A stretch of 64,000 nt of DNA from Nitrosopumilus sp. (GCA_963662625.1 OY759726.1:1728001-1792000), one strand, 5' to 3'; counted from the first letter of the stretch, positions 22,171 through 47,821 are shown. The notes: generated by a model from the sequence alone, not told the origin. A program made the numbers and translations.

Positions 22171-22445
22171 GAGTGGCGCTCACAGATAATTTCCCCCTGA
22201 GAGGGGGCACTGCAGAAAAGCCTGCTGATCGCCGGATCGCCTAACCGCCCACGGGCGAGACCGGCAGGAAACTGCGGTACCTGACGTGGGCCATGCGCGC
22301 AGGGAGGGACACCAGGATCCGCAACAGGATGATGGCAGTGCGCGGGGTGCTAGGCGGATACCCCGCGGGGGACGCCGCGTGCCTTACAGACGTGGAACGG
22401 CGCACCGTCCGCCCGTGGGCTGGACGGAGCCGGGCGCGGCGCCCT
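22171..22445 (+). pseudogene. 5' fragment of an IS630-like transposase (HTH region)
   Basis: RDTRIRNRMMAVRGVLGG....AACLTDVERRTVRPW resembles an IS630 OrfA N-terminus; possible end TA|GAGTGGCGCTCACAGATAATT at 22169. Confidence 0.55.
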
Positions 22446-22931
22446 CCGACCCCCCCCCCCGGCAGCGCGGCCCATGGCCCGGCCGAGGAAGAAGGCCGGC
22501 AGGGCGGGCGTGACAATACCGGCGGACCTGCCCCGGGGCGGGTACGCCGCGGCGTGCCACGTCCCGGACGGGGGGACCGCGCAGGAGGGGACGCGCTTCA
22601 GGGACCCGGCGCGCGTGATACTCACGCAAGGGCGGGCCAGGATCCCCGGGGCGCCGTTCTCGCGGGCGTACGTGCGGGAGCTGCGTGGGTTGGGGGACCG
22701 GGTGCCCGGCAGGCACGCGGGCGGGTACAGTGGGGCCGTCACGTCCTACAGGCCCTCCGCGTACGGGAGATCCGGCCCCGGGGGCGCCACCGGCCGTGCC
22801 GGGCCCGCGGGCCGCGGGAGCTACGGCGCGCAGTGGAGAGGAAGGGGCTGCGGCGCGCGCCGTGGAGCCGGTAGCAGTCCCGGGCAGGCACTCGGCGCAT
22901 GTGCGCCGCGCTTCCTGGCCGTGGATGCGTA

Positions 22932-24054
22932 GTGATCACATTAGATAATCGCTCATCTTGGCGGCCTTGATCTCCCCCGTGCATGGCATCGTCCCTACTG
23001 GTTCCTTCATCTCGTCGGCCGACCCGCACGGCCCGTTGGCGGCGTGCAGCCCCGTGTTGCGCCACTGTCCCCCTGCCGGGCTGGGGTCTGGCGCGTGGGC
23101 GGGAAAGTGCCCGGGCACGACGTCCCCGCCGTGGCCCCTGACGGCTCCCGTCACCTTGCGCGACTTGTGGCAGCCCGCGTTGTCCGCAAGGACGGGCACC
23201 TTCCCGAACTTCCTGCGGAGCCTGCCGGGAAAGTCCGAGAAGATGTCCCCGTTTGCCCTGTAGCAGGACGAGAGGCGGAACCCGTCCCGGCGCGGCGCGC
23301 CAAGCGGGCAGGACCCCTGCCCCGGCAGCGCGGGCGGGGCCGTGGCCCCGGCGCCCCGGGGCGCCCGCGCCCTCTTCTGCACCAGCCCGGTCACGTGGGA
23401 CGCCCCGTCCTGGGCGACGACGGCGTACCCCCCGGGGAGCAGTGCGAGACGACGCGCCTTGCTTTTTTTCAAGCTCCCTCCGCCCTGGTCCCGGGGCCGG
23501 CTTGGGGTGCCTGGGCCGGGGGGCCTGCCCCGGGGAGCCGATCCTGCGCGGCGCCTCGCGTGTCCACGGCGTCCCGTGCCGCGCCCCGAACCTCCTCTCC
23601 ATGCGGGCCGCCAGGAGGCGGGCGGCCCGCGGGCCAGACCCGAACCCGAACCCCTGCGGGCCCGCGAGGAGGTCTTTCCCGGGCTGCCCCGGCTGCGGCC
23701 CGCCCGGCTTCGGTGGGGCGCCGGGCCTCCTCTCGCCGTGCCTGCCGCGGGTCCCCGTCTGCATGGCGCGCACGGGCCACCCGCGCACCGTGTAGGGCCG
23801 GTCCGGCGCCCCGCCTGCCGGGCGCATGGGCGCGCCCCCCTTGCGCATGACGTGCGCGGGCAGCCGCGCGCGTGCCTTTGGATCCTTTTCCGTCCTGTGG
23901 ATCTTCCCGGGGTACCCAGCCCCGGTCTTGGGAAGGAACACCCTACCTGTTGGCATGATGATGTCTTTCATGTGTAGCGTCAGGCTTGCCGCGATCCGGG
24001 CCTTTCGGCCTGGTATCGTTGGCTGTTTTGTGGGCGATTATTAGTTGGGATTAC
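22932..24054 (-). mobile_element. Degenerate IS630-family element (about 1.12 kb) with imperfect TIRs and duplicated TA
   Basis: Ends TAGTGATCACATTAGATAATCGCTC and reverse complement TAGTAATCCCAACTAATAATCGCCC (18/25); OrfA to ...PRPRHPK...ELEKK, A7G frameshift site, OrfB with QDGAS, ADNAGCHKS, HAPDPSPAGGQW. Confidence 0.88.
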
Positions 24055-24232
24055 TACGCAACCTGCCGTTCGGGCACGGGGACACCGGGGGCACCGCGCC
24101 TGCCCCAGTGGCGGGCAGGCTGCAGGCTCTGCTGCCCCACCCGTCCACGTTCCCGGGGCACGGGGGGCTGGGCCCACGAACAGCACTCCCTGACAAAATA
24201 ATTATTTATAAGGCACCTGTAGAATTGATCAC

Positions 24233-24514
24233 ATGATGTCGGCCATGCCACAAGGACAGCTGACTAGCTTGTCTAACGTCTCTGAACATGGCTCAAGTAC
24301 ATCCCAGACCGATACACCTGAAGCTGAAATCTATCACGTAAAGTTAGCGCAAGACGAAGACGGACGCTTTGTGGCCACGGTTCCTGAATTACAGGGGGCG
24401 GTTTCTGACGGTGCGACGAAGGATGAGGCAATAACCAATGTTCACGAAGCGGTTGAAGCCATGTTGGAGTCGCGGGGGCAGCAAAAAGTGTTTATGTTGA
24501 TTGCTGCCGGATAA
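24233..24514 (+). CDS. hicB: HicB-family antitoxin (short form, no obvious DNA-binding domain)
   Basis: DEDGRFVATVPELQGAVSDGATKDEAITNVHEAVE; low-GC segment. Confidence 0.88.
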   Translation: MMSAMPQGQLTSLSNVSEHGSSTSQTDTPEAEIYHVKLAQDEDGRFVATVPELQGAVSDGATKDEAITNVHEAVEAMLESRGQQKVFMLIAAG

Positions 24515-24519
24515 CTCAT

Positions 24520-24746
24520 GTGACAAAATTCCCAGCAATTTCTTCGAATGATTTAATCAAGTTTTTAGCCACATTAGGTTATCAACACGATCACCAAAAG
24601 GGCGATCATGTTATTTTAAAAAAGACGGTTTCAGGAGACTTTCGGTTCCTCGACGCAAAGAGGTAGGCAAAGGACTACTCTCAACAATTCTAGCAGAGGT
24701 ACAAAGTAGCAAAGATGATCTCCTTTCTTGGCGGAATGGTGAATAA
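24520..24746 (+). pseudogene. hicA: HicA-family mRNA interferase, frameshifted at TTTTAAAAAAG
   Basis: MTKFPAISSNDLIKFLATLGYQHDHQKGDHVILKK then, in the -1 frame, DGFRRLSVPRRKEVGKGLLSTILAEVQSSKDDLLSW. Confidence 0.8.
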
Positions 24747-24783
24747 GCATAGCACATATAGGCAACATTCTGGCGATACAGTC

Positions 24784-25238
24784 ATGATCCCAGAAGAAGA
24801 AATTAAAAAAAATTAGTTGACATGGGATATATTCTAGCAAAGCCAAGAGTGTTGTATCCCAGTTATTACAAACTAACTGACGGAACCATAGTTAGAGCAC
24901 TAATTAATGTCCATCATTTGGTTTTGGACCCTCAAACACCTCAAGGATTTACCGTGAATTCTACAAACTTAATAAGTGCGTTCGTACCAAAAGAAAAAAG
25001 ACGCCCGGAGTTGTTCCAGCACTTCGATCCGGCAGAATTGATGAAAGATCCTGTAGATGAGGACGTTGAGTTTGAAGTACTGCGTGAAAACTTTAGCGTG
25101 TACGATCTCAGCAACGGCATGCTGTTAAGCGTAAAAACTGTTGCAGGCCAAATAGTCAAATCCAGATATCATACGCGAGAGGGAGAACCAATATACAATA
25201 TCGGCACCAGCCCAATCCTCAAAACTAAAAAGCCCTAG
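24784..25238 (+). CDS. Hypothetical protein with internally duplicated Y.L.(D/N)G motif; N-terminus possibly split at an A8 run
   Basis: Track ORF 24822-25238 (YYKLTDGTIV / VYDLSNGMLLSVK...EGEPIYNI); upstream MIPEEEIKK joins LVDMGY with one extra A. Confidence 0.7.
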
Positions 25239-26719: not shown

Positions 26720-28110
26720 CACCCGTTGAAGGCGTACTTCCTCTCGCCCCTCGACTCGTCGTCCGTCTTCACGCCCACCAGGATGAACTCCTTCCTCGGG
26801 TGGAGCAGGGACTGCTCCGGCGTCAGCATGTTCTCGTGGATCCTCTCGTACTCGTCCAGCGTGAGCCGCCTCCGGGGGCCCAGCTCCGCCTCCAGGTTCA
26901 TGTTCTTCACGATGTCCTCGTACTCGGGCCGCACCACGCCGCTGAACACCATGGCGCTGCTGCCGCTGCCGTACGAGCCGAACCCCACGCGCTTCCCGCC
27001 CAGGTCGATCCCCTTCTGGTACTCGAACTCGAGGCTGCTCCGGAACCCCAGGTACAGCGACGCGGTGTAGAGGTTCCCGATCATCTTTGACGCGACGAGC
27101 GAGCTCGCGAGCTTCGCCTCGTAGAACTCCCGGAACTCGGGCGTCTGCGTGAACAGCTTCGTGAACTCGTGGTCCCTGGCCTGGAACTCGTCGTCCCCCA
27201 GCACCGACTCGATCGTGCCGCGCTGGTCCTTCGGGGCCGGCTCCGCTCCGATGTCCGCGGTTATCCCCTCCCACCTCGGGAGCTGCCTCCACTCGTGCCT
27301 CAGCAGGTATGCCAGCGCCTTCCGCCCCATGTTGCTGTACGGCAGGTGCATGTTCAGGTAGTCGATGTGGTCCAGGATGGTCTCGCCGGGGGCCAGCCCG
27401 ATCAGCCCCGAGGCGAGCGCCTTCTTCTTGTACGCCTCGAACGCCTTCCTCACCTGGATCATGTAGAGCAGGTTGGAGTACTGCCCGTGGACTATCGGGG
27501 TCTCCTTCCCGAACGGCCTGTAAAAGTCGTACTCGTCCTTGATCGACGTCGCCGTCGCGCGCGGGTCGAACGCCAGCAGCCTCGGGTCGTCGTTGAGCAG
27601 CATCACCACGGCGCCGGCGCCCTGGGTCATCTCCCCGCTGGATCCGAGGTCGTACTTTGCGATGTCGGAGACCACCACCAGCGCGTGCTGCCCCTCCGAC
27701 TCCCCGGCCCTGATCCAGTTTGCGTTGTCGTAGAGCGCGTATGAGCCGCTGACGCAGGCGAACTTCGTCTCCACCCCCCCGCAGTGCTCGAACGTGCCGT
27801 GGCCGTAGACCTGCTCGAGCATCCCAACCACGTAGGAGTTCATCGCCTTCGACTCGTCAAACGAGGACTCCGTCGAGACGTACAGCCTGCCGATGTCCTC
27901 CGGGGACAGCCCGTTTTTCTGCATTATCTGCAGGCACGCGTTGGCCGCAAGGCACGCGGGATCCTGGTTCGTGTCCACGATTGCCATCTGCGACACCCCC
28001 AGGCCCTTCTGCAGCTTCGCCGGGTCGAGCCCCCGGGCGTCCGCAAAGTCTGCCGCGTCCACGTACAGGCGGGGGATGTATATCGCCATGTCGTCGATTC
28101 CTGCTGCCAT
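26719..28110 (-). CDS. hmgS: Hydroxymethylglutaryl-CoA synthase
   Basis: GIDDMAIYIP, TESSFDESK, KFACVSG, SDIAKY, TQGAGA, HLPY, GNLYTASL, SYGSG. Confidence 0.94.
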   Translation of the reverse strand: MAAGIDDMAIYIPRLYVDAADFADARGLDPAKLQKGLGVSQMAIVDTNQDPACLAANACLQIMQKNGLSPEDIGRLYVSTESSFDESKAMNSYVVGMLEQVYGHGTFEHCGGVETKFACVSGSYALYDNANWIRAGESEGQHALVVVSDIAKYDLGSSGEMTQGAGAVVMLLNDDPRLLAFDPRATATSIKDEYDFYRPFGKETPIVHGQYSNLLYMIQVRKAFEAYKKKALASGLIGLAPGETILDHIDYLNMHLPYSNMGRKALAYLLRHEWRQLPRWEGITADIGAEPAPKDQRGTIESVLGDDEFQARDHEFTKLFTQTPEFREFYEAKLASSLVASKMIGNLYTASLYLGFRSSLEFEYQKGIDLGGKRVGFGSYGSGSSAMVFSGVVRPEYEDIVKNMNLEAELGPRRRLTLDEYERIHENMLTPEQSLLHPRKEFILVGVKTDDESRGERKYAFNG

Positions 28111-28272
28111 CTAGCTTGCCTCTGTCTATTGTCATATAAGGATAATGGGGCGGGCACTATCTCACAATCTGTTGGAATTTTGTCAATCTCCGCCAGGCAC
28201 CCCCTCCTGCGCGCGGATCCGGCCGCCGGGGGCCAGACCAATCTAAATAAGCGGGCCCATCCTACAAGACCC

Positions 28273-29334
28273 ATGAAGAAGGTCTTCGTGAACGGGTACG
28301 GCTCCATAGGGCGCAGGATCGCGGCGTTCCTGGGGGACGATCCCGAGGTCACCGTGACCGGCGTCGGGAAATACTCCCCCGACGGCGGCGTGCGCGAGGC
28401 GGCGTCGAGGGGCCTTGACGTGTTCGTCCCCGAGCGCAGGCTCGCCGAGTTCGGCGGCCTGGGCGTCTCGGGCACCGTCGAGTCGGCCCTGGACGACTGC
28501 GACCTGGTGATAGACGCCTCGCCCGGGGGCCGCGGCTTCAGGAACAAGCTGGACCTCTACGCCCCCCGGGGCATCAAGGCCATCTACCAGGGGGGCGAGA
28601 CCACCGAGGGCGAGGCCGCGGTGTCTGACCTGCTCTTCAACTCGCGCTCGAACTACGGCATGGCGGCAGGCAGGAGCCACGTCATGCAGGGGAGCTGCAA
28701 CGTGACCGGGATGGGCAGGGTGCTGGAGCCCCTCCGGGACAGGTATGGCGGCAGGCTGGTCAGGTTCGACGTCACCCTCATCAGGCGCTGGGCCGACATC
28801 GAGCAGACGGACAAGCAGCTGGCAGACACGGTGGAGATCACCGAAAGCCCGCACCACGGCGACGACGTGAAGGCGTACCTCGGGAAGGACGCGCCGCTCT
28901 TCGTGCGGGCAGTCAAGGTCCCCTCGAGGCAGATGCACCTGCACGTGATGGACGTCAGGTTCGCCGGCGACGCCCCGGAGCCGTCCGAGATCCACGGGGT
29001 GTTTGCAGACGAGTTCGGCGTGGCGACGCTGTGGACCGCGGGGGGGACCAAGGAGGTGAGGGACTGCGCGGCGTCCATGGGGTTCAGCTTCACGGACACC
29101 AACATGATCCACATCCACGCCAACATGACCGCATCCGCGGGGGACACCGTCCAGATCATGTACTCCGACGACCAGACGGGGATCGTGATACCCGAGAACC
29201 ACATGCTGATGCAGGCCATGCTGTTCGGGAGGCCCTACGAGGAGGCGTTCGCCCACACGGAATCCGTGTTCCACATGAAGGAGAAGAAGGAGAGGCTGGA
29301 ATCGCACTTTGCCAGGAGGGGCGGCCCGCCGTGA
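28273..29334 (+). CDS. gap: Archaeal type II glyceraldehyde-3-phosphate dehydrogenase
   Basis: VFVNGYGSIGRR, IYQGGE, GSCNVTG, SPHHGDDV, IVIPEN. Confidence 0.92.
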   Translation: MKKVFVNGYGSIGRRIAAFLGDDPEVTVTGVGKYSPDGGVREAASRGLDVFVPERRLAEFGGLGVSGTVESALDDCDLVIDASPGGRGFRNKLDLYAPRGIKAIYQGGETTEGEAAVSDLLFNSRSNYGMAAGRSHVMQGSCNVTGMGRVLEPLRDRYGGRLVRFDVTLIRRWADIEQTDKQLADTVEITESPHHGDDVKAYLGKDAPLFVRAVKVPSRQMHLHVMDVRFAGDAPEPSEIHGVFADEFGVATLWTAGGTKEVRDCAASMGFSFTDTNMIHIHANMTASAGDTVQIMYSDDQTGIVIPENHMLMQAMLFGRPYEEAFAHTESVFHMKEKKERLESHFARRGGPP

Positions 29335-29355
29335 TCCCCGCGGCCCGCGCCGGGG

Positions 29356-30621
29356 TCACTCGCCGTCGCCGGCCTTCTTCTCGATCCTGATCTTCACGGC
29401 CCTGTGCTTCAGGACCTTCTCGATGGTTATCTTCAGGTTCCGCACCTCCAGCCTGTCGCCCTCCTGCGGGATGTCCTGCAGCCTCTCGTGGAGCAGCCCG
29501 TTGAGCGCCGCGTAGTCGTCCCCCTCGGGGACGTCCGTCTTGAAGATCTCGTTTATCCTGGTGATCTTGATCTCGCCGTTCGTCACGATGGTGTTCTGGT
29601 CCATCCTCTCGTATTCCACCGGCCTCGAGACGTCCGTCTCGTCCTCGATCTCCCCCACTATCTCCTCCAGGAGGTCCTCCAGCGTGACGAGCCCCTCGAC
29701 CCCCCCGTGCTCGTCTATGACTATCGCTATGTGCGTCTTCCTGCCCTGCATCTCCTTGAGCATGGAGCTGACCATCTTCTCCTGCGACACGAAGACGGGC
29801 TTCCTCGCGATCTGCTCGAGGCTCGCCATCTTGTTGTCCCTCTCGAGCTCCTTGAGGACGTCCCTCACGTGGATGAACCCCACTATGTCGTCCCTGTTGG
29901 CGCCGTAGATCGGGATCCTGGAATGCCCGCTCTGGTTTATCTGGGGAAGCGCCTCGAAGAGCAGGAGCTTCGAGTGCAGCGAGAACATCCTGGTCCTGGC
30001 CGTCATCACCGAGCGGATTACCGTGTCGTCGAACTTCAGGGCGCCGTGGACCATCTCCATCTCCTCCTTCTCCAGCGCCTTCTCCTCCAGCCCCTGCGCG
30101 ATCACGCCCTTGATGTCCTCCTCGGTGATCGGCGGCGGGAGGTAGCTGCTCCCGGTCACCTTCACCACCCCCTTCGTGACCATCTCGAAGAACTTGACCA
30201 CCGGGTAAAACACGTAGCTGAACCCCAGCAGGACCGGCGCGTAGCGCAGGGCGATCTTCGTGGAGTTGGCGTTGCAGTACGTCTTCGGCGTTATCTCGCC
30301 GAAGATCAGGATCAGGAAGGTCATTATCCCCACCGCGATCCCCAGCCCCTCGTCGCCGAAGAGCCGGAGCGCCACGCTGGTCGCGAGTGCCGACGCCCCC
30401 ACGTTTACGAGGTTGTTCCCGAGGTTCACGCTCGACATCATCCACCCGGGGTTGGTCTTCAGCTTGTGCAGGGCCTTGGATCCCTTCTTGCCCTCCTTCA
30501 GCAGCTGCACTACCTTGGCCTTGTGCACCCCGACCAGCGCGACCTCCAGCCCGCTGAAGAAGCCGGACGTCCCGAGGAGCAGGGCAAGCGCGGTCATCTC
30601 GACCCACAGTTCTGCCATCAT
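29356..30621 (-). CDS. CNNM/HlyC-CorC family transporter (TM + CBS pair + CorC)
   Basis: SGFFSGLEVAL, LGNNLVN, FGEITPK, HSRIPIY, DEHGGVEGLVTLEDLLEEIVGEI. Confidence 0.93.
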   Translation of the reverse strand: MMAELWVEMTALALLLGTSGFFSGLEVALVGVHKAKVVQLLKEGKKGSKALHKLKTNPGWMMSSVNLGNNLVNVGASALATSVALRLFGDEGLGIAVGIMTFLILIFGEITPKTYCNANSTKIALRYAPVLLGFSYVFYPVVKFFEMVTKGVVKVTGSSYLPPPITEEDIKGVIAQGLEEKALEKEEMEMVHGALKFDDTVIRSVMTARTRMFSLHSKLLLFEALPQINQSGHSRIPIYGANRDDIVGFIHVRDVLKELERDNKMASLEQIARKPVFVSQEKMVSSMLKEMQGRKTHIAIVIDEHGGVEGLVTLEDLLEEIVGEIEDETDVSRPVEYERMDQNTIVTNGEIKITRINEIFKTDVPEGDDYAALNGLLHERLQDIPQEGDRLEVRNLKITIEKVLKHRAVKIRIEKKAGDGE

Positions 30622-30784
30622 GCCCCCCCGAAAACTTCATGGGGGCGTTTGCTGCCGTCCATTTTACTTTTTAGACACCATCTCAGGTGATTAATGTCAG
30701 CGGAGCTTGTTTTTAAGGATTAAGCGCGGCGGGCGGGGGCCCCGGCCGCACAATCCTTGTATGTCGGCCGCCACAACGGGTGGC

Positions 30785-31603
30785 ATGGGCCTGTCAGACA
30801 CGTCGGCGCTGGTCCTGCTGTGGGCAGACGGCGCCGTGCACACCAGCCGGGACGCCAGGGCGTACCTGGGGTCGCTGGACCTGGAGGCGGGCATGGGGAT
30901 CCTCGGGAGGTGCAACAGGGTGTGGGCCCACTACGGCGAGGTTATAAAGAACAGGAAGCACTGCGTGCTGGAGGCTTCCAGGAGGATGCTGCGGGACCGC
31001 GGGATCGGCCAGATGGTCATACTCGGCGCCGGCTTTGACGCGCTGTCCGTCGAGATGCTCCACGGGGAGGGGGGCCTCGAGGTCTACGAGGCAGACTCCG
31101 CGAACATGCCCCTCAAGGAGCGGCTCGTCAGGGACGCCTGCCCGGGGCCGGCCCGCCACATCCACTGCGTGGACGCGGACCTGGGGGATCCGGCCGGCCT
31201 CGCGGGCGCGCTGGAGGGCAGGGGGTGGGACGCCCGGAGCCCGTCGCTCGTCGTGATGGAGGGCGTGTCGTACTACCTCGGCGCCGGCGAGATGTCCGGC
31301 CTGCTCCGCGCGTTCGGGCGTGGCGGCCGGAACCGCGCCGTGCTGGAGTACCTGCTGCCCGGCAGGTGCGTGTCGGGGGACAGGGCCCGCATACCCGACG
31401 GGGTGTTCGGGGCGATAGGCGACGCGTACGGCGTGCCGCCTGCCAGGTACGACAGGGGCGGGATTGCCCGCCTGCTGGGCCCCGGCGGCGCCGTCGACGC
31501 CGTGTACGGCATGGGGGAGATGGAGCTTGCGAGGACCGGCGGCAACGCGCACTTTGGGGGCGCCGGGTCCTGGTGGATCGAGGTCTGCGTCGCCAGGATA
31601 TAG
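30785..31603 (+). CDS. Class I SAM-dependent methyltransferase (LCM/TcmP-like)
   Basis: QMVILGAGFD, VYEAD, VDADL, VVMEGVSYYL. Confidence 0.85.
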   Translation: MGLSDTSALVLLWADGAVHTSRDARAYLGSLDLEAGMGILGRCNRVWAHYGEVIKNRKHCVLEASRRMLRDRGIGQMVILGAGFDALSVEMLHGEGGLEVYEADSANMPLKERLVRDACPGPARHIHCVDADLGDPAGLAGALEGRGWDARSPSLVVMEGVSYYLGAGEMSGLLRAFGRGGRNRAVLEYLLPGRCVSGDRARIPDGVFGAIGDAYGVPPARYDRGGIARLLGPGGAVDAVYGMGEMELARTGGNAHFGGAGSWWIEVCVARI

Positions 31604-31624
31604 CGCCTTCCCCCGCGGCCGATC

Positions 31625-38577: not shown

Positions 38578-38645
38578 GCCACCGCCGCATATTCTAGTGT
38601 ATCTCTTATTAGCTCCGTGTGAATTATGGTTGAGGCCGGGTGTTA

Positions 38646-38818: not shown

Positions 38819-38829
38819 CCTGCGCGGCG

Positions 38830-39495
38830 CTACGGCTCCCGGCCGGCGAGATCCGCCGAGCACTCCTCGACGTCCTTGAACGAGTCTATAGAGTGCCACA
38901 TGGCGTCGGGGAACTCCACGGCGTTCAGCATCCCGCGCGAGGCATAGTCCGGGAACAGCGTCTTCTCCAGGTCTCCCTTCCTAGGCATGTCGGCCAGCGA
39001 CCCCCTCTCCAGGCAGTACACCCCCGCGTTCATCCACGTGCCGGGGACGCTCCCCTTCTCCCTGAACCCCGCGACCCTGCCGCCGCTCACGTCCATGATC
39101 CCGAACTTCGTGCGGAGCGGTATCGTGGCGACGGAGTTGGGCGCGCGCGCCAGCCGTCCCAGGTCCATGTCGGTCACGACGTCCCCGTTCATCACCAGGA
39201 ACGCCTTCCCCGTGATCATCGGGGCCACCTTCCTGACTGCCCCCCCGGTCCCCAGCGGGGTCCCCTCGCGGGACACCACGACCCCGCGGATCCCCCTCCT
39301 GTCCAGAAAGTCCGATATCATCTCGGACTTGTACCCGGTGCACACTATGATGTCCCGGATGCCGCTGCCGCGCAGGTAGCCTATCTGCCACTCTATGATC
39401 GGCGCGTTGTTTATGGGGACCAGGGGCTTTGGGACGTAGTCGGTGACCGGGCGCAGGCGCTTGCCCCTGCCGCCGGCCAGGATCACTGCCTTCAC
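38830..39495 (-). CDS. Sugar-phosphate nucleotidyltransferase family protein
   Basis: KAVILAGGRGKRLRPVT..VPKPL, PLGTGGA, VMNGD, MNAGVY. Confidence 0.92.
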   Translation of the reverse strand: MKAVILAGGRGKRLRPVTDYVPKPLVPINNAPIIEWQIGYLRGSGIRDIIVCTGYKSEMISDFLDRRGIRGVVVSREGTPLGTGGAVRKVAPMITGKAFLVMNGDVVTDMDLGRLARAPNSVATIPLRTKFGIMDVSGGRVAGFREKGSVPGTWMNAGVYCLERGSLADMPRKGDLEKTLFPDYASRGMLNAVEFPDAMWHSIDSFKDVEECSADLAGREP

Positions 39496-39628
39496 GGGTT
39501 CTCCTCGCACCCGTCACAATAAAAATAAACCTACGGGCCCGCGCCACGCCGGCGGGGAGGGGGGACTCCAACCAGCCGTGGCGCGTCGTCCCGCGGAGCG
39601 CCGCGCGCGGCGTCCCGCGGGAGGCCCC

Positions 39629-39763
39629 TCACCGGTCCCCGTCCCCCTCGGTCAGGTAGTAGTGCAGCTCGGTGTAGCATTCCTTGCAGTACCCCTCGTA
39701 GCCGGTGTGGTCGCAGTCGTAGACCCTCTTGGATTCAGAGCCGCACTTGGCGCAGTCGGGCAT
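39629..39763 (-). CDS. 44-aa zinc-finger-like miniprotein (not in ORF track)
   Basis: MPDCAKCGSESKRVYDCDHTGYEGYCKECYTELHYYLTEGDGDR*. Confidence 0.7.
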   Translation of the reverse strand: MPDCAKCGSESKRVYDCDHTGYEGYCKECYTELHYYLTEGDGDR

Positions 39764-39775
39764 GCACTGGCTGGG

Positions 39776-40171
39776 TCACGCCGATTTTTTTAGTTTTATG
39801 GCCCCCAGTCCGACCTGGACCGCCCCGGCTGCCAGCAGCGGGATCGCCTCGGCCACCGCGTCGCGGCCGGACTCGGCGGCCTCGGCCGGGGCGGCGGTGC
39901 CCACCACCGCCGCGCCGCCCGCCATTATCAGTATCCCGGAGGCGACGATCAGCGCCCCGAGCCCCAGCGACGGCTCTTTCCTCGCGATCGCGAACGCTAT
40001 GAACGGCAGCACCAGCGCCGGCATGCCCAGCCCCAGCCCGCGCGCCATGTGGTCGAACGGCAGGAACCCCTGGCCGTCCTCGTTGCCGTACCCGGCGGCC
40101 ACGTCGGCGCCGTAGACGAGCAGCAAGCCCACTGCGATCCCCGCGAGCACCAGGGCCACTGCCAAAGCCAT
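39776..40171 (-). CDS. Hypothetical membrane protein (about 4 TM helices)
   Basis: Hydrophobic segments; YGADVA...GFLPFDH..RG.GLG. Confidence 0.75.
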   Translation of the reverse strand: MALAVALVLAGIAVGLLLVYGADVAAGYGNEDGQGFLPFDHMARGLGLGMPALVLPFIAFAIARKEPSLGLGALIVASGILIMAGGAAVVGTAAPAEAAESGRDAVAEAIPLLAAGAVQVGLGAIKLKKSA

Positions 40172-40354
40172 GGGTTGGGTTTTTCCAAGACAACTAATAA
40201 ACCATTGTGGATCCCTGCGGCACGCCGCCGGATCGGGTCCAGGCAGGCTTGCGCAGGCAGCCCACGGGCCCCGATCGCCGCGCCTTGATCCGGCTGAGGC
40301 CGCGGCCCTGCGCGGGGATCCCCGGCAGGGCGCCCTGGGGGCGGCGCGGCCATG

Positions 40355-41500
40355 CTAGGTCCCGGGCCGCGGCACGGATCTGCCACTGAGCGCGGACGCC
40401 CTCTCAAGCAGTTGGCCGACGGTCTGGCCGTCCCTTCCCACGATGTTGTAGTGGCCGAGCTTCCTAAGGGGCTTTGAGACCCGCTTGCCGTACATCTTCA
40501 GGAACACGCCCGGCTCGTCGAGCACGGGCCCCTCGTACTCCCCCTCGAACCCCTCCGGGCCCAGTATGTTGCACATGACCGTGGGGCGGTTCAGCCGCGT
40601 GCTTCCAAGTTCCATCCCAAGTATCGCCCGGAGGTGCTGCTCGAACTGCGACGTCTCGCTTGACTGCAGCGTGTGGTGCCCGGAGTTGTGGACCCTGGGG
40701 GCGATCTCGTTGATCAGGATCTCGTCGCCGCCCGTCACGAACATCTCTATGCCGAAGACGCCGGCCCCCTTCAGCAGCCCCATGGTGTCCTCAGCTATCC
40801 TCTCCGCCTTTGCCGCGACGGCGCCCGTGACCCTGGCGGGGGCTATCGTCTGGCGGAGTATGTTCTCCTCGTGGACGTTTTCCACCAGCGGGAACGTCCT
40901 GATCTCGCCCCCGGTCCCGCGCGCCGCGATGACGGACACCTCCATCTTGAATGGGACGAGGCGCTCCAGCATGAGGCCCCTTCCCCCGAGCCGGTCGTAC
41001 GCCTCGCCGGCGCCGCCGGGCGAGAGGATCTTGAAGTTCCCCCTCCCGTCATACGCGTCCCGCCTCGCCTTCAGCAGCGACGGGGTGCCGAACCTCCCAA
41101 GGCCGGCCTTCAGTCCGTCCAGGGACTCGATCCTGGCAAACTCCGGCACCGGCAGGCCGTTCTCCGCCAGGAACGACTTTTGCAGGAACTTGTCCTGGAT
41201 TATCCTGAGGGTCCCGGGCGACGGGCTGACCCGGGCCCTGTCCTGGACGGACTCGAGTATCCCGCTGTCTCCGGACTCGATCTCGTACGTGATGATGTCC
41301 GACCTCTCGGCCAGTTCCACGATCGCGTCCTCCTGCCTGAAGCCCGCGACGATCTGCTCCGCGCCCTTCTGGGCGGCGGGGCACCCCTCGGTCGGATCCA
41401 GCACGATGACCTTGGACACCTCCCCCGGCATCCGCATGGCGGCCTCGGTCAGCATCATGCCCAGCTGGCCCCCGCCAATTATGCCCAGCGCCCTTCCCAT
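40355..41500 (-). CDS. purK: N5-CAIR synthetase
   Basis: GIIGGGQLGMM, AYDGRGN, NEIAPRVHNSGH, SQFEQHLRA, RKLGH. Confidence 0.96.
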   Translation of the reverse strand: MGRALGIIGGGQLGMMLTEAAMRMPGEVSKVIVLDPTEGCPAAQKGAEQIVAGFRQEDAIVELAERSDIITYEIESGDSGILESVQDRARVSPSPGTLRIIQDKFLQKSFLAENGLPVPEFARIESLDGLKAGLGRFGTPSLLKARRDAYDGRGNFKILSPGGAGEAYDRLGGRGLMLERLVPFKMEVSVIAARGTGGEIRTFPLVENVHEENILRQTIAPARVTGAVAAKAERIAEDTMGLLKGAGVFGIEMFVTGGDEILINEIAPRVHNSGHHTLQSSETSQFEQHLRAILGMELGSTRLNRPTVMCNILGPEGFEGEYEGPVLDEPGVFLKMYGKRVSKPLRKLGHYNIVGRDGQTVGQLLERASALSGRSVPRPGT

Positions 41501-41602
41501 CGGATACTAGGCGCGGCGTGGATAAAAATACCTACTGCCGCGCGGGGGCGCCAGCGGGGCGGCCCCGGTATAGATAATAACGTGCTGCGTTTTTTCAGTG
41601 TG

Positions 41603-42169
41603 ATGGCCGCGCCGCGAAAGCCCGTGATCGGCATAATCATGGGATCAAGCTCTGACAGCAGGGTGATGAGGGGGGCGGCGGAGGCGCTCGACGGGTTAGG
41701 CATAGCGCACGAGGACAGGATCGTCTCGGCGCACAGGACCCCGTCCATGCTGGCAGAGTACGCCGAGCACGCCGAGAGGTCCGGCTTCAAGGCCATAATA
41801 GCCGGCGCCGGCGGCGCGGCGCACCTGCCCGGGATGATCGCGTCGTTTACCGTGATACCGGTGGTAGGGGTGCCCATCATGGTCTACAACGACAGGCGGC
41901 CGGACGGGACGGGCTTTTCGGCATTCGGGGGCCTCGACTCGCTGCTGTCGATCTCCGAGATGCCGTCAGGATCCCCGGTGGCCACGGTGGGGGTCAACAA
42001 GGCGGCAAACGCCGGGATCTACGCTGCCAGGATCCTCGCCAACGGGTCGGCTCGCCTGAGGGGGCGCCTGAAGCGCATCAAGTCGGACAGGCGCGAGTCG
42101 GTGCTCGCCGAGTCCGCCGAGATGGAGTCGCAGGGGCTGGGCAAGTTCGCCCCCGCGGGTCCGGGCTGA
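41603..42169 (+). CDS. purE: N5-CAIR mutase
   Basis: IIMGSSSD, VSAHRTP, AGAGGAAHLPGM, GGLDSLLS..EMPSGSPVATV. Confidence 0.96.
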   Translation: MAAPRKPVIGIIMGSSSDSRVMRGAAEALDGLGIAHEDRIVSAHRTPSMLAEYAEHAERSGFKAIIAGAGGAAHLPGMIASFTVIPVVGVPIMVYNDRRPDGTGFSAFGGLDSLLSISEMPSGSPVATVGVNKAANAGIYAARILANGSARLRGRLKRIKSDRRESVLAESAEMESQGLGKFAPAGPG

Positions 42170-42222
42170 TCACGGGCCGGGCGGGAGGCGGCACGGGCCG
42201 CGGGCGCGCCCCGCCACGCGGG

Positions 42223-43431
42223 TCACGTGAGGAGCTTGAACCGGGTGTCCCTCTTCCGCAGCGCCTCGAGCAGCGCGTCTGCCTGCTCCTTTCCGTGGGT
42301 CTCCAGGCTCAGCGTGACCGACGCCGAGCCCGCCTTTATGTCGGAGCTCAGCCTGTCGTGGATCACCTCCACGATGTTGGCGTTGGCGGCGCTGATCACG
42401 TCCACTATCTCCTTGAATGCCCCCGGCATGTCAGGCAGCAGGATCGAGATCTTGAGCAGCCTGCCCATGGCCGCCAGCCCCTTGTCGACGATCTGCCCCA
42501 GCAGGTACATGTCGATGTTTCCGCCGGCGAGTACCGCCACCACCTTCCTGCCCGGCGAGGGCTTCCGCGAGATCAGGTAGGCCAGCCCCGCCGCGCCGGC
42601 GGGCTCCACCACCACCTTCATCCTCTCCATCAGCAGGAACATCGCCTTTATGATCTCGGAGTCGTCCACCAGCACTATGTCGTCTATCAGGTCCCTGATT
42701 ATGGGAAACGTCACCTTCCCCGGCACCCGGACGGATATGCCGTCGGCGATGGTCCTGTCCCCGCCGGCGCCCCCCGGGGAGCCTGACCGCCACGACTCGT
42801 ACATCGACGGGTGCGACGCCGACTGGACGCCGACGACCCTGACGCCGGGGTGGTTCTCCTTAACTGCCAGCAGCACGCCTGCCGCCAGGCCGCCGCCGCC
42901 TATGGGCAGGTAAATCTCCTCGACGTCGGGGATCTGCTCGAGCACCTCCAGCCCTATGACGCCCTGCCCCGCGATGATCGCCGGGTCGTCAAACGCATGG
43001 ATGAGCGTGGCCCCTGTCTCCCCAGAGATCTCCCGGGCCTTGGCCGCCGCCTCCTCGTAGTTGATCCCCTCCAGGATGACGTTCGCGCCGTACCCCCTCG
43101 TCGCGGCGACCTTGGTCGGGGAGGCGTTCTTCGGCATGACTATGGTGCACGGGATGCCCTCGCGGTCTGCGGCATACGCCACCCCCTGCGCGTGGTTTCC
43201 CGCGGAGGCCGCGATGACGCCCCTGTCCCTCTCCTGCGGGCCCAGCGACACGATCTTGTTGTACGCCCCGCGGATCTTAAACGCGCCTGTCTTCTGCTGG
43301 AACTCGGCCTTCAGGTAGACGTCGGACCCGCTCAGCTCGCTGAACGCGGCGGAGTGCAACAGCGGCGTCTTCCTTACGGCGTCGGTGCGCAGCAGGCTTG
43401 CCTTCACAACGTCGTCGTACGTGGCGGCCAT
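42223..43431 (-). CDS. ilvA: Threonine ammonia-lyase with C-terminal ACT domain
   Basis: KAEFQQKTGAFKIRGA, ASAGNHAQGVA, PIGGGGL, VEPAGA, GGNID. Confidence 0.93.
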   Translation of the reverse strand: MAATYDDVVKASLLRTDAVRKTPLLHSAAFSELSGSDVYLKAEFQQKTGAFKIRGAYNKIVSLGPQERDRGVIAASAGNHAQGVAYAADREGIPCTIVMPKNASPTKVAATRGYGANVILEGINYEEAAAKAREISGETGATLIHAFDDPAIIAGQGVIGLEVLEQIPDVEEIYLPIGGGGLAAGVLLAVKENHPGVRVVGVQSASHPSMYESWRSGSPGGAGGDRTIADGISVRVPGKVTFPIIRDLIDDIVLVDDSEIIKAMFLLMERMKVVVEPAGAAGLAYLISRKPSPGRKVVAVLAGGNIDMYLLGQIVDKGLAAMGRLLKISILLPDMPGAFKEIVDVISAANANIVEVIHDRLSSDIKAGSASVTLSLETHGKEQADALLEALRKRDTRFKLLT

Positions 43432-43501
43432 GGGAACCTTGCTATCCGCGCGGCATATTTGATTCATTCCATTGCGGCAGGCCCGCCCGCCTCCGGCGCC
43501 C

Positions 43502-44344
43502 TCAGCCCGCGTCGAGGGCAGAGAGGATCAGGTCCAGGTCTTCCGCGATTTTCCGCCTTACCCTGTCGGGGATCTTCCGGGAGTCGAATGCGCCCTCCCT
43601 CGACCCGTCCCTTACGAACTCCAGGTCTAGGGCCACCAGGCACCCCTCCTCGCCGGTGACCAGCCTCGCGTCGTCGATGAGCACGGGTTCCATCCGGTAT
43701 GTCTCCAGCAGCAGGGAGTCGAGCTCGTCGAACAGCGCGGCCTTCTTCACGGAGAGCCCCTCTAGGTCCGCGTCTGCGCCCCCCTCGATCTCGCCGTAGA
43801 CCCTTTCCCTCAGCTCGTCGTCCTCGTACAGTATCTCGAACAGCTTCTGGTGGTCAAAGTCCCGGTAGCCCATCTCCCTCAGCTTGGCCAGCACGAACCG
43901 GTCTCCGGCGTCGGCCATCTGCCGCTCCTTGTCCTTCGTCAGGTCTACCAGATCCGACAGCTCCTTCTGGCAGTCGACGACCCTCTGGTCGGGCCGGTAG
44001 TACAGCAGGACGTGGAACTGCACCGACATGTGCCCCGAGAGCAGGTAGTTCCCCTCCATCCTCTCGAACTTGATGAAGATCCTCCTGACGTCCTCGTTGT
44101 TGGAGGTCGACACGTCCTGGACCGCCCAGCCGTCCAGCCTCCCAGCCACCCTCCGGTAAAAGTCGCCTACGCGCGCCGGATCGAACGTCTCCTGCCCGGT
44201 GACCGTAGAGTCCCCCAGCATGACCCTGACGCCGGCGGTGCGGACGAGATCCGCGATCCGCCGGAGGTATGAGCCCTGTATCTCGTCAACCTTCCCGCCA
44301 AGATCCCGCAGGAACCCGTCGGTCGAGCCTGGAACCAGCCGCAC
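43502..44344 (-). CDS. Hypothetical protein
   Basis: 280-aa ORF with genome-typical codon usage. Confidence 0.75.
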   Translation of the reverse strand: MRLVPGSTDGFLRDLGGKVDEIQGSYLRRIADLVRTAGVRVMLGDSTVTGQETFDPARVGDFYRRVAGRLDGWAVQDVSTSNNEDVRRIFIKFERMEGNYLLSGHMSVQFHVLLYYRPDQRVVDCQKELSDLVDLTKDKERQMADAGDRFVLAKLREMGYRDFDHQKLFEILYEDDELRERVYGEIEGGADADLEGLSVKKAALFDELDSLLLETYRMEPVLIDDARLVTGEEGCLVALDLEFVRDGSREGAFDSRKIPDRVRRKIAEDLDLILSALDAG

Positions 44345-44631
44345 GGCCTTGGTGCGCCGCCGCGGGCATTAAACCTTACAGGTGCCGTCCCGCACTGGTC
44401 CGGGCCCGCGGGCCTGGCGGCGTGCGCGGCCCCGTCCGCCCCGGGGCGGCCGCCCAGTCCGCCGCGGGATCCGGCGGTATAGCCCTTAAATATGCAGATC
44501 CCCCAGAACGTGTATGCGCATGGTTGCGGCTGGACGTGGCGGCCGCGAACTGCGCCGAAACGTATAAGGGAAGCGCGAACGGATGTTCCGGCTGATGGAC
44601 AGAACTTCCACGCGGATCGGCGGTGCCGCGA

Positions 44632-45444
44632 ATGCCTGAGGGATCCGACGACCCCGGCGGCGCCAACCAGGAAGCCCCGGCGCCGTCCTCCAACGTGATA
44701 GACGCCATGTTCGCCAAGAGGGGGACAGAGATCCTCGACTCCGATACCATGATACTGGAGACGCAGAAGAGGGTGTGGGCGGCGCTGAAGAAGGGGTACA
44801 CGTACGCCGGGATCACCGACGACTCGGAGAAGTTCCTCCGGAAGAACGTCTTTGCAAAGCTGGACATGGTGGTCCTGTACGTCGACCTGGTCGGCTCCAC
44901 CACGATGACGCTCGAGCTGCCGGTGGAGAAGCTGGCGAAGATCATCAACTCGTTCTCCCAGGAGATGGCGTCGATGATCCACCAGCACAACGGGTTCGTG
45001 CTCAAGTTCGTCGGCGACGCCGTGATAGGGTACTTTGTGGCAGGCGGGGACAAGCTGCGCGCGGCGCGCGACGGGGTCAGTTGCGCGCGGTCCATGAACA
45101 AGATCATCCAGGAGGCCATAAACCCGGTCCTTAACCAGTACGACTACCCGGACCTGATGGTAAAGATCGGGATGGACTTTGGGCAGAGCATCGTGATCCG
45201 CTACGGGTCAAACCCCTCCGCGTCCCACATAGACCTGATAGGGTCCGTCATGAACATGGCCGCGAAGATCCAGTCCATGGCAAAGCCCAACGAGATACTC
45301 ATCGGCAACGACGTCTACCGGATGCTGCACCCGGAGTACCAGGAGTCGTTCAGGGAGGTCATCATGGACGCGGAAAGGTGGAAGTACCGTTCCAGGAGGA
45401 CGGGCGAGATATACAAAGTCTACGAGCTGGTGCCTAAACGGTGA
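44632..45444 (+). CDS. Class III adenylate/guanylate cyclase catalytic-domain protein
   Basis: LYVDLVGST, LKFVGDAVI, KIGMDFG, DLIGSVMNMAAKIQ. Confidence 0.9.
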   Translation: MPEGSDDPGGANQEAPAPSSNVIDAMFAKRGTEILDSDTMILETQKRVWAALKKGYTYAGITDDSEKFLRKNVFAKLDMVVLYVDLVGSTTMTLELPVEKLAKIINSFSQEMASMIHQHNGFVLKFVGDAVIGYFVAGGDKLRAARDGVSCARSMNKIIQEAINPVLNQYDYPDLMVKIGMDFGQSIVIRYGSNPSASHIDLIGSVMNMAAKIQSMAKPNEILIGNDVYRMLHPEYQESFREVIMDAERWKYRSRRTGEIYKVYELVPKR

Positions 45445-45580
45445 ACCTTCCGGGGCACTCTACGTGCTCGTAGTGGTGCTCGGTGAATTTTTCCTGCACG
45501 ACGTAGATCACTATCTTGTGCAGGTCCTCGTAGCTGATGGGCTTTTTGCACTTTGCGCACGTCCTCTTGGTCTGTGGCAT
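45434..45580 (-). CDS. 48-aa CxxC...HxxC zinc-finger miniprotein (not in ORF track)
   Basis: MPQTKRTCAKCKKPISYEDLHKIVIYVVQEKFTEHHYEHVECPGRFTV*; TTATAA box about 25-30 bp upstream. Confidence 0.75.
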   Translation of the reverse strand: MPQTKRTCAKCKKPISYEDLHKIVIYVVQEKFTEHHYEHVECPGRFTV

Positions 45581-45756
45581 TGGAATAGTTGATCCAGCAA
45601 GGAATTATAAGGATCGGCGATCAGCTCAAGTTGAGTAAAAACAACTCCGATTTTACATCCTGATTTATCAAACGCCTGAGCGCCCACGCGTGGCAGGCAC
45701 GCGGCCGCGCGCCGGCGGCCCCCTCCCGGCCCCATGGCAAGGCAAAAATAAGCCCA

Positions 45757-46158
45757 ATGCCAGGCATCAGCATGGACGACCACGTTCTGAACCACCTGAG
45801 GGGCCTCTACGGCGCGGATCCGGACGTGCCGCACGTGGCATTCCAGTTTCCAAGGCTCCCCCCCGGCCCGAGGCGGGAGTTCGACCCGGGAGCGGGCCCC
45901 GCGCTGGAGGGCATGCTGAAGGACGCCGGGGGCATCGGCGGCGGGCTCCAGGGCTTCCAGCACGCGTACCAGATGCGCGCCGCCGGACTCCTCACCGCGG
46001 GCCCCATGGTCGTACCCCCGGGACACCCGCTGTACACCCTGCGGGACTCGGTCTCCTCGCTGAGGGCCGAGAACGACAAACTGCTGAAGGAGAATGCCGA
46101 GCTGCGCAAGAGGCTCGAGGATTCCAGATCCCATTCCACGTCGGCACGCGCGCCATAA
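45757..46158 (+). CDS. Hypothetical protein with C-terminal coiled coil
   Basis: LRDSVSSLRAENDKLLKENAELRKRLE heptads. Confidence 0.6.
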   Translation: MPGISMDDHVLNHLRGLYGADPDVPHVAFQFPRLPPGPRREFDPGAGPALEGMLKDAGGIGGGLQGFQHAYQMRAAGLLTAGPMVVPPGHPLYTLRDSVSSLRAENDKLLKENAELRKRLEDSRSHSTSARAP

Positions 46159-46209
46159 GGCGGGGCAGCCCGCCCGCCCGGGGCATCCCACGCAATAGTC
46201 TGTTGAACA

Positions 46210-46530
46210 CATGATAACCACCCAGGCGTAGTTGCCCCGATGGACCGGCCCCTGGTAGCGCGTGGGCCTGGCGCCCTTTCTGTTGAATGGGGCAATCCGA
46301 GCTGCCGTGTCACTGGGCTTCGCGCCCTGATAGGTGTGTGCAGCTTCCGATCCGTCAGGCATCCGAAAGGAGGTGATAGGAAAGGATGAGAAAGACAAGC
46401 ATGGGGACAGGCATGGGGAAGAGAAAGCGCGGCGCGTGCGTGGTGGACGGGAACGGGAAGGTTCTCGAGAGGGGGCAGTACCCCAACACCCGGGACGGCG
46501 CGGCGAAGTTCGCAGGGGTGATGGCGCGCA
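46210..46530 (+). mobile_element. Truncated IS110-family element (non-coding left end plus first ~48 codons of DEDD recombinase) nested in the IS5 left TIR
   Basis: GGAGGTGA SD at 46369, ATG 46386: MRKTSMGTGMGKRKRGACVVDGNGKVLERGQYPNTRDG, matching the IS110 N-terminus GID..K.....CV.D..G......(F/Y).N...G. Confidence 0.78.
46225..46350 (+). ncRNA. Candidate IS110 bridge/seek RNA (two stem-loops with internal loops)
   Basis: Stems TTGCCCC/GGGGCAA with inner GGCCC/GGGCC, and AGCTGC/GCAGCT with inner GGGC/GCCC; loop has TCTGTTGAA identical to the left flank. Confidence 0.5.
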
Positions 46531-47821
46531 ACTGCCAGAAATTGCCGGGCCTAAACAGTTGAGCCCCCAGCCCAACCACGCCAAACCGAAAAGGCCTTGG
46601 ATCACGGCCGCGCACCGTCCCCGTTGGCTGCGACCGACAACGAGAAATGCGCCAGGTGCGGGAGGGGCCTGGCGGTGTCGCATGGCCCCGGCTGGGGGGC
46701 GGCCTGGGGGAGGCCAACGCCGGCAAGGAGGGCGCCCCGTTCAGGTACGCCTGGGCGCTGGTCATGGCCGCCGCCGCGGTGAGGACATCGCCCGGGGCCC
46801 GGTACAGGCAGCTGTCCGGGCTCCTCGCTGGGATGCTGGGGGGCATGGCGCGCCGCACAGCCCGGTGCTGGCCAGGAGGATGGCGCGCCCCGGCGGGGGA
46901 GTCGTCCGCGTCTCCGGCGGCGGCCAGCCCATGACCCTGCTGGCCGACGCCACGGGCCTGAAGCAGTGCAACCGGGGCGAGTGGATACGGAAGAAGTGGA
47001 AGGTGAAGCGCGGGTTCGCCAGGCTGCACCTGCTGGCCGACGCCGACACGAAGAAGATGCCCGCGGCGGTGGTGACCGACGACAGGACGGGCGACTCCCC
47101 CATGCTGAAGGAGCTCCTGGGAACCGTGGTGGAGCCGCGTGGCGGGAAGCGGCAAGAGGGGAAGCCGGCGGGGAAGCAGGACAGGCGCATGGCGCTGATC
47201 CGCGGGAAGGCAGCCGCGGCGGGGGATCCCCTGCCGCGCGCGGGCTCGCCCCCGCCCAACCTCCTCGCGAGCGGCGTGGCGCCGCTCGCGCTGCAGTGCG
47301 GCCAGCCGCCCGGCTCCCGCGGGGCGCGCCTGATCGCGGACGGGGCGTGCGCGTCGCGGGACAACATGCGGAGGTGCCGCGACATGGGCGTGGGGCCTAT
47401 CATCCTGGCCAGGGTAGCGCCCGCCGCCGGGGGCAAGGGCGCCGGCGGCGCGTGGGGCGAGGCGGCTCGGGACCGGCCGGGGGGCGGCCCGGAGGCGCGC
47501 GCCGGCAGGATGGGCACGAGGGAGAGGGAGGAGAACGCCCGGTACCGGGAGGCCAGGAAGGGGTACGGCAGGAGGTGGCTGACCGGGATAACCATGTCGG
47601 CGTTCAAGGGGACGTCCGGGGACCACGCGCGCTCGCGCAGGTGGGAGAACATCGTGCAGGAGGCAAGGCCCATGGCGGCCCAGCACGACCGGTGGGCGGG
47701 GGAGGCGGGGGCGTAGGGACTCCAAGCGGCACGGCCTGGCCACGGCCCGGGGATCGTGCCGAGTTGTGCAACAGACTACCACGCAAGAATCCTTTATATC
47801 ACGCCGGCATGAATTCGCGGC

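Follow-up and report, generated by a model that had tools for sequence, protein, structure and literature searches.

The subject of this analysis is a 64,000-base stretch of DNA (the window) from an archaeal genome assigned to Nitrosopumilus sp. (GCA_963662625.1 OY759726.1, bases 1,728,001-1,792,000), in which relics of IS630-like, IS5-like and IS110 insertion sequences (IS) have decayed chiefly by A:T to G:C transitions. The genome is one contig of 1,858,698 bases with 63.4% G+C (GC), and an archaeal AmoA gene (389.5 bits) marks the host as an archaeon that oxidises ammonia. Some 13.6% of the sequence (252,724 bases) is repeated over 200 bases or more at 75% identity or higher. Passages of two papers give sponge-associated Thaumarchaeota a GC of 47-67%, against 32-34% in free-living forms, along with many transposases (PMC7848895, PMC6697440), and the passage concerned leaves the cause of the high GC open, as a matter that would "require further investigation" (PMC6697440). 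The present genome fits this high-GC, transposase-rich pattern; what is added here to those passages is a substitution spectrum read from IS relics (PMC7848895, PMC6697440). Because the genome holds better-preserved copies of each family, changes could be counted against real copies rather than a remembered consensus. Counts are given below as triplets of AT>GC transitions, GC>AT transitions and transversions.

Two of the window relics are IS630-like, one sitting inside the other. Relic B (22928..24067, minus strand, 72.1% GC) has six mostly open frames, with its transposase spread across two of them, and an inverted-repeat arm at 22923..22955 pairs with 24031-24063 (33 nt, 76% complementary). 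The older element that it interrupts, relic D, survives as a left piece at 22168..22448 (82.7-86.9% identical to five genomic places upstream of PF13358 matches), a middle piece at 22692..22932, broken by B and abutting it at 22928 (79-88% identical to six other places), and a right piece at 24057..24190 (85-90% identical to six other places). There is also a run of ten C inside D, at window 22440-22470, where all frames stay open. Relic B matches PF13358 at 16.8 bits, under the cut-off of 28.6, compared with 54.6 for the best genomic copy and 18.8 and 23.7 for sister copies, and its 343-residue frame has no Pfam match at E <= 0.01. The second minus-strand frame reads AQDGASH, LADNAGCH and FPAHAPDPSPAGGQW, where a less decayed copy reads AQDEVSH and FPAYTPDPSPAGGQW; the replacements DE>DG, DNAGCH and PDPSPAG, which the preliminary description of this DNA had proposed, are thus reproduced. 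Relative to the least decayed IS630-like copy (at 15948), B shows 102/12/19, i.e., 102 of 133 changes are AT>GC. Its termini are, as had been suggested, less altered than its interior: 4/40 and 7/52 AT sites are changed in the two end deciles (11/92), versus 91/278 between them.

The other two elements are joined to each other. An IS5/IS4-like relic occupies 46526..47778 (plus strand, 74.1-74.2% GC) and has lost the catalytic Y and E. It scores 22.4 bits against PF01609 (34.8 with neighbours), where intact copies reach about 46 + 32 bits; the 460-residue frame of the window copy matches DDE_Tnp_1 (PF01609) at 32.3 bits. The window copy reads ADGACAS and YGRRWLTGITMSAFKG, and intact genomic copies read ADGAYAS and YGRRWLIEIIISAFKR, so that DGAY>DGAC and the catalytic E>G were correctly seen as changes in the relic. 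The IS4/IS5 motif Y-(2)-R-(3)-E-(6)-K is whole in sister copies, and this E>G breaks it in the window copy. Compared with a consensus built from four near-identical copies, the relic carries 51/7/10 (51 of 68 changes AT>GC), and its length changes are few, as claimed earlier: two 1-base gaps, one 12-base deletion and changes of repeat number. Upstream lie the 5' 335 bases of an IS110 element (46196..46530, plus strand), reading GTGMGK where the best-scoring genomic copy has GIDIGK, again as had been predicted. The fragment shares 97.0% identity with the intact copy at 1194284 and 98.8% with dead copies at 720839 and 728464, and each of the 10 differences that separate it from the intact best-scoring copy is A>G or T>C. 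It covers residues 1-50 only; full-length elements that match it score 66-100 bits with PF01548 (DEDD_Tnp_IS110). Terminal inverted repeats, described earlier as still readable, can be read in the IS630-like relic, but the left one of the IS5-like relic has been replaced by the IS110 fragment.

This junction recurs. At three loci (genome 1194284-1196973, 718141-720839 and 728464-731132) a full IS110 copy sits 10 bases inside the left inverted repeat of an IS5-like element, and window 46196-47778 has the same junction with IS110 cut to 335 bases; it would seem that one IS inserts target-specifically into the end of the other. Dead IS110 copies were also duplicated after their decay (genome 719419-720839, 728464-729884, 17304-18727 and 1507275-1508673): two of these four are identical, with the same 44 changes, and the other two share 169 changes. 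Mobilisation in trans or segmental duplication is possible.

Next to relic D is an island of 47% GC (0.469 over window 24001-25000) with a HicAB cassette. The hicB-like antitoxin gene (24233..24514, plus strand; PF15919, 28 bits) is seemingly whole, and the hicA-like gene (24520..24746, plus strand) is frameshifted, with halves of PF07927 in two frames at 24520-24663 and 24552-24743. The cassette, once described as untouched, is so in composition but not in function.

For the genome-wide spectrum, ancestors were chosen without regard to GC, as the consensus of near-identical burst copies or as the copy with the best Pfam score, and rates were expressed as u (AT>GC per AT site) and v (GC>AT per GC site). 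Three-copy families were left out of the rates: parallel changes in two copies mimic a reverse change in the third and yield symmetric singletons. Four families could be polarised in this way. AT>GC transitions account for 242 of 358 events in IS110 (on 523 AT and 897 GC sites; u/v 5.7), 79 of 127 in the IS5-like family (u/v 6.5), 125 of 263 in a DDE family of 423 residues (u/v 4.6), and 70 of 83 in the single relic of another DDE_Tnp_1 family, fam22 (70/9/4; u/v 13.9). They thus make up 48-84% of all changes and occur per site at 4.6 to 13.9 times the GC>AT rate. Individual IS110 relics show 44/0/0, 91/1/1, 97/9/20, 143/19/41, 184/10/15 and 199/2/8, and a sister relic of the IS5-like window copy 63/7/21. 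Both strands are affected alike, with 134 A>G and 108 T>C changes interleaved in IS110. No fewer than five IS families show the bias, with suppression of G:C>A:T transitions in the relics. That the window relics decay almost only by A:T>G:C changes, the central claim of the preliminary description, is therefore sustained for the IS5-like (51/68), IS110 (10/10) and IS630-like (102/133) copies.

In every family, copies farther removed from the burst copies are richer in GC, going from 63% to 77% in full-length IS110 (81% over the 3' part alone) and from 69% to 78% in the 423-residue family, and the Pfam score of IS copies falls as their GC rises. The AT-richer states of the intact copies are also those of L014, an outgroup element of another genus with 55% identity; outgroup polarity was taken from this element alone, five of the six outgroup loci being mis-oriented, so that the tallies of 18:2, 42:4 and 37:9 are noisy. 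AT>GC changes cannot make stop codons, and the relics therefore stay open in many frames.

When sequence context and position were examined, as had been proposed, both proved informative. Adenines flanked by A or T are spared, and a T three bases upstream of an A raises its chance of change about 2-3-fold in all three families and in two codon phases. The effect is limited to spacing 3, with marginals of 0.50/0.48 compared with at most 0.30 at spacings 2 and 4. Among 4-mers, changes were found at TCGA 28/32, TCCA 26/35, TGGA 26/35, TAGA 5/5, TCTA 5/5 and TGCA 6/30, so that the hot context may be written 5'-TSSA-3' (S, G or C). TSSA sites other than TGCA are changed at 78/90 positions in the element interior and at 2/12 in the terminal 8%. 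No strand-coordinated clusters were found; A>G and T>C alternate beyond chance (z +1.3 to +5.8). Outside the elements, TNNA tetranucleotides are not depleted in unique DNA (observed/expected 0.86-1.41), and host fourfold-degenerate sites show no TNNA deficit, A/(A+G) being 0.183 with T at -3 versus 0.115 with A at -3, with a TGCA-type control behaving alike. Third positions of adjacent codons in non-repeat genes, compared with each gene's own composition, have T..G at 0.69 and C..A at 0.79, and T..A at 1.21 and T..T at 1.40, for nearly every middle dinucleotide.

The changes are also shared among copies to a degree that sets them apart from other classes. The IS110 relic that has decayed least carries 44 changes, found again at 43/44 sites in the next relic and at 44/44 in the most decayed, while totals differ five-fold. 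Overall, AT>GC transitions common to several lineages number 150/242 in IS110 (62%) and 46/79 in the IS5-like family (58%), and the other change classes are shared in only 5/116 and 8/48 cases (Fisher p 6e-29 and 3e-6); for GC>AT transitions this is 3% and 17%, and for transversions 5% and 17%, in IS110 and the IS5-like family respectively. Descent was ruled out as the source of nested changes, the other classes being mostly private, and a four-class context model did not suffice for the overlap (43 observed, 13.9 expected). Relic states have been transferred in tract-like fashion between IS5-like copies: those at 1454609, 30495 and 731132 have an intact backbone with blocks, up to 10 consecutive variable sites long, in the states of older relics. 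These blocks look like conversion tracts, whereas shared sites in IS110 are scattered and not in tracts. A homology-dependent component is likely.

Silent sites of single-copy genes have moved in the same direction. Fourfold-degenerate sites of non-repeat genes are 88.5% GC (306,835 codons), and GC at the three codon positions is 0.604/0.471/0.856, all on crude gene calls; a fourfold GC of 0.885 is equivalent to a u/v near 7.7, which falls within the range of the relics. The region of the HMG-CoA-synthase gene is 65.6% GC here, 38-40% in two genomes of the same genus, 35% in another genus and 55-56% in two others. Given the silent-site composition and same-genus relatives near 39% GC, single-copy DNA has been driven the same way, and the genome-wide AT>GC pressure put forward earlier is supported in direction. 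Since the intact IS110 gene has a high GC3 (0.912) and lower GC1 and GC2 (0.565 and 0.466), the relics do at freed sites what silent sites had already done. Polarisation of silent sites by relatives was ruled out, as even the closest genomes, with 63-77% identity in genes, are too distant. Low-GC relatives treated by the same singleton method show the opposite bias (u/v 0.39, 0.29 and 0.43 on 24, 18 and 25 events). Other GC-rich relatives give 1.41 (G008), 1.33 (G069), and 0.56 and 1.52 (G072) on 23-102 events in young copies; as these three show no relic bias, the bias is not a simple by-product of high GC.

The gene content was searched for enzymes that might account for such a bias. EndoV and NucS, whose loss had been considered as a cause, were not found, and they are also absent from 69/80 and 70/80 relatives, respectively, regardless of GC (the EndoV tally of 11/81 includes an unpublished genome, G084); MutS_V is absent from all five genomes searched, this one and four relatives. 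Because relatives lack them too, losses of these three cannot explain what is peculiar to this lineage. With MutS_V and NucS not found, however, no known strand-directed mismatch repair would compete with another pathway. HhH-GPD glycosylases number one here and 2-4 elsewhere, unrelated to GC. An adenine deaminase, for which a survey had also been suggested, fares no better: deaminase-fold genes amount to one locus (PF00383, PF14437; none for PF00962), and one occurs in each of the five compared genomes.

Two intact Vsr homologs (PF03852, 71.3 and 66.1 bits) are present. One closes a cassette of C5 methylase (PF00145), HNH, an unknown gene and Vsr that adjoins an IS110 relic (L070, genome 1508981-1511300), and the second lies at 1521112-1521321, 10 kb from that cassette. 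Vsr is above the cut-off in 12 of 81 family genomes. Its presence goes with long G/C runs: it occurs in 10 of 12 genomes that have 100 or more runs of 20 G/C bases and in 2 of the 69 others (Fisher p 2e-9). In the passages cited, Vsr, as known from E. coli, is a T:G-specific endonuclease that restores C:G whatever the origin of the T, and is thus mutagenic for T>C and protective for C>T (PMC2715241, PMC12907096). By analogy, Vsr might raise GC in an organism without mismatch repair, and the two homologs are candidate enzymes.

Taken together, the relics are best read as ordinary dead IS copies that record a GC-ward drive specific to this lineage, a GC-biased correction of G·T mispairs acting both on replication errors and on heteroduplex between copies; a probability of roughly 0.45 may be attached to this reading. 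With no MutS- or NucS-type mismatch repair, G·T mispairs would be corrected to G:C whichever base was original, perhaps by the two Vsr-family T:G mismatch endonucleases. Among replication errors, T>C and A>G would then be fixed and C>T and G>A cancelled. Heteroduplex formed between diverged IS copies (ectopic) or between strains (allelic) would undergo GC-biased short-patch gene conversion, which would spread G/C states from old relics to younger copies and erase new A/T states. Living copies would be shielded only by selection and, once dead, their first and second codon positions would follow the third. Conversion accounts for the sharing, the position effect, the blocks and the repeats that are untouched, but not for the origin of the G/C states; mutation alone leaves terminal sparing and the blocks unexplained. 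Each model being partial, one cause acting in two places is favoured.

Several observations weigh against this reading. Conversion cannot create G/C states, and the fam22 relic, almost without donor copies, still shows 70:9. Independent decay with gamma-distributed site rates (alpha 0.17) fits IS110 fairly well without conversion (G = 61 on 25 df), and extreme hot spots could therefore mimic sharing. A short patch 3' of T predicts a smooth fall-off that includes same-strand neighbours, but only spacing 3 is hot, and same-strand pairs within 1-3 nt are anti-correlated; likewise the hot context is T*SSA, and T*NNG, expected of a Dcm/Vsr-like site, is cooler. The host excess of T..A and deficit of T..G and C..A are not predicted by the relic rates. 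The association of Vsr with G/C runs ignores kinship, spans six genera, uses such runs as a proxy for GC and includes one genome (G030) whose runs are on small contigs; it may only reflect restriction-modification cassettes of symbionts. G069, with two Vsr homologs and as many GC runs as here, has a u/v of 1.33 (23 events, three young copies), and together with G072 and G008 it shows that neither high GC nor Vsr alone predicts the bias. G069, like the restriction to spacing 3, speaks against simple Vsr patches as the mechanism.

The silent-site evidence has its own weak points. The crude gene calls behind it comprise 1,189 frames over 75% of the genome, chosen by GC3 > GC2. No single-copy neutral DNA could be polarised, and no decayed host gene was identified among 20 of the 114 non-repeat regions of at least 75% GC (400-bp windows), these 20 being wholly or largely outside the gene calls, with 150 of their 156 frames of at least 90 residues compared with Pfam. 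Nine of the 150 match ordinary families (ROK, histidinol dehydrogenase, DHquinase and others) and are real genes missed by the caller; the other frames have no match. Single-copy stretches of 0.4-1 kb with 74-76% GC, several open frames and no Pfam match occur at 539900-541600, 1659000-1660600 and about 10 more places; they may be relics decayed past recognition, or unknown genes.

The first alternative is mutation bias alone, in which every copy decays independently and neutrally under a genome-wide, nearly pure A:T>G:C spectrum with very uneven site rates and no conversion. Strains without mismatch repair have transition-rich, strongly context-dependent spectra, which speaks for this, as do the failure to find MutS or NucS, the agreement of the fourfold GC of 0.885 with the mean relic u/v, and the privacy of transversions and GC>AT changes, as in a star-like history. 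The gamma model above, with relic ages of 0.12-2.8, reproduces nine of ten pairwise overlaps; it is nevertheless rejected overall at its G of 61, underestimates how far the two youngest relics overlap (31.5 expected, 43 observed), and yields ages that do not track other changes, of which the "oldest" relic has 10 and a "younger" one 60. Mutation should moreover ignore position within an element, contrary to the TSSA counts of 78/90 and 2/12, and it provides neither for IS5-like copies that are intact but for blocks of 10 relic states in a row nor for the lack of a TNNA deficit at host fourfold sites. On balance this explanation appears rather unlikely.

The second alternative, raised in the preliminary description, is an inverse of fungal repeat-induced point mutation (RIP), i.e., a homology-dependent defence that kills IS copies through adenine deamination, given in doses, in both strands of repeated mobile DNA. 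Much of the pattern suits it: one-way changes, transitions only, with the strands equal (134 A>G, 108 T>C in IS110); a pair of adenines, one per strand, with a spacing of exactly 3 bp (TCGA 28/32 versus TGCA 6/30); a motif that is hot only in the element interior; the same sites changed in independent copies; a load decoupled from other changes (44/0/0, 91/1/1, 199/2/8); IS copies of other GC-rich relatives without such a bias; and host genes without a TNNA deficit. A RIP-like process thus explains sharing, context, position and the null result in host genes. It does not explain the repeats that carry no such changes, nor the composition of single-copy silent sites, which moved the same way. 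Nine copies of one IS (99.4-99.9% nearest identity) and four identical copies of another are near-identical bursts without an AT>GC excess, and the last 4.9 kb of a 6.9-kb duplicate (652423-659348 and 681569-688494) have only 3 differences, again with no such excess. (That duplicate otherwise includes a hypervariable 1.2-kb cassette, 112 of its 115 differences falling at unit positions 794-1999, with many transversions.) The single deaminase-fold gene is common to relatives, and to our knowledge no natural double-strand DNA adenine deaminase has been described, which also counts against it. The interior-only motif and the changes shared across copies thus favour some homology-dependent part, and the untouched bursts and duplicate speak against a targeting of repeats. 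An inverse RIP is a possible but less economical reading, and on present evidence an improbable one; that there exists a defence turning A to G on both strands of repeats, with a preference for 5'-TSSA-3', and disabling IS without stops or indels, seems correspondingly doubtful.

Two further alternatives carry very little weight. The polarity could be reversed if the GC-rich copies preserved early stages of a master element whose later drift was towards AT, and nested differences with unequal totals are indeed the classic mark of successive master subfamilies; this is rejected because catalytic residues (GTGMGK, DGAC, E>G) and Pfam score are lost in the GC-richer copies and because L014 has the AT-richer states, and the transversions, in addition, are not nested. 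Finally, an assembly or polishing artefact in the repeats is scarcely credible. Cross-polishing of repeat copies can happen, and at five places in the IS region all X1 contigs, of paralog-like depth, have A/T where the window has G/C; but a 14,044-base X1 contig extends 28 bases into the IS110 fragment without any difference, a 110-base X1 contig matches relic-specific letters at 47409-47429, and up to 38% of AT sites are changed, in a lawful context, with loss of protein motifs, at many loci. Strain variants were looked for in contigs (not reads) of two runs over window 28000-47999; these show 0 differences in the single-copy part and differ only in the IS region, where they derive from paralogs (X2 is the same strain at low depth), and such contigs yield no spectrum and tell nothing of polymorphism.

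Among known systems, fungal RIP produces one-way C:G>T:A transitions on both strands with a context preference, few indels, spared repeat edges and a variable load. The relics resemble it in all but the direction, and in having the same sites changed in different copies; they differ in that A:T goes to G:C, near-identical repeats are untouched, the host is an archaeon without a meiotic stage, and single-copy silent sites behave alike. GC-biased gene conversion, reportedly described by Lassalle et al. in 2015 for bacteria and by Galtier in 2003 for gene families, is matched by the spread of G/C states and loss of A/T states, by multicopy DNA that is GC-richer than its source, and by tract-like mosaics; G/C states are shared at 62% and 58%, against 3-17% for other changes, and blocks are seen in the IS5-like copies. 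Restriction to transitions, a sharp 4-base context and a 3-bp cross-strand spacing are unlike it, and none of the papers that the searches returned describes it in relics of archaeal IS. Very-short-patch repair, for which Bhagwat and McClelland are said to have shown an oligonucleotide bias in 1992, is likewise context-bound, and a Vsr gene stands beside a C5 methylase here. In E. coli, however, Vsr works with MutS/MutL at the methylase site C-T-W-G-G (W, A or T) and shifts a few oligonucleotides, whereas no MutS or NucS was found here, the effect would be genome-scale, and the hot context, apparently T*SSA, and its spacing differ from that site and from a simple Vsr patch. Amelioration of foreign DNA towards host composition, as Lawrence and Ochman reportedly proposed in 1997, similarly lets sequence freed from selection drift to the host's neutral composition, but the relics overshoot the genome mean (72-81% versus 63.4%) with a spectrum of almost one change class. 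A limited literature search found no published description of A:T>G:C-only decay of prokaryotic IS copies.

In summary, the cause of high GC is a long-standing question, and prokaryotic mutation is generally regarded as AT-biased, as Hershberg and Petrov, and Hildebrand et al., are both said to have found in 2010. Dead IS copies beside their living sources provide hundreds of polarised, effectively neutral substitutions and thereby a direct read-out of the force that raises GC. As the relics are open in all six frames, AT>GC changes making no stops, gene callers will over-predict there. Were the less likely, repeat-directed adenine editing at TSSA true, it would be a defence that mirrors fungal RIP, and a natural activity that edits adenine in double-strand DNA would have to exist; the preferred alternative is a bias in the correction of G·T mispairs, with named candidate genes, and both are testable. 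The substitutions show a GC-ward drive of one class of change in a defined context, and the GC-richness of this lineage itself becomes a testable matter.

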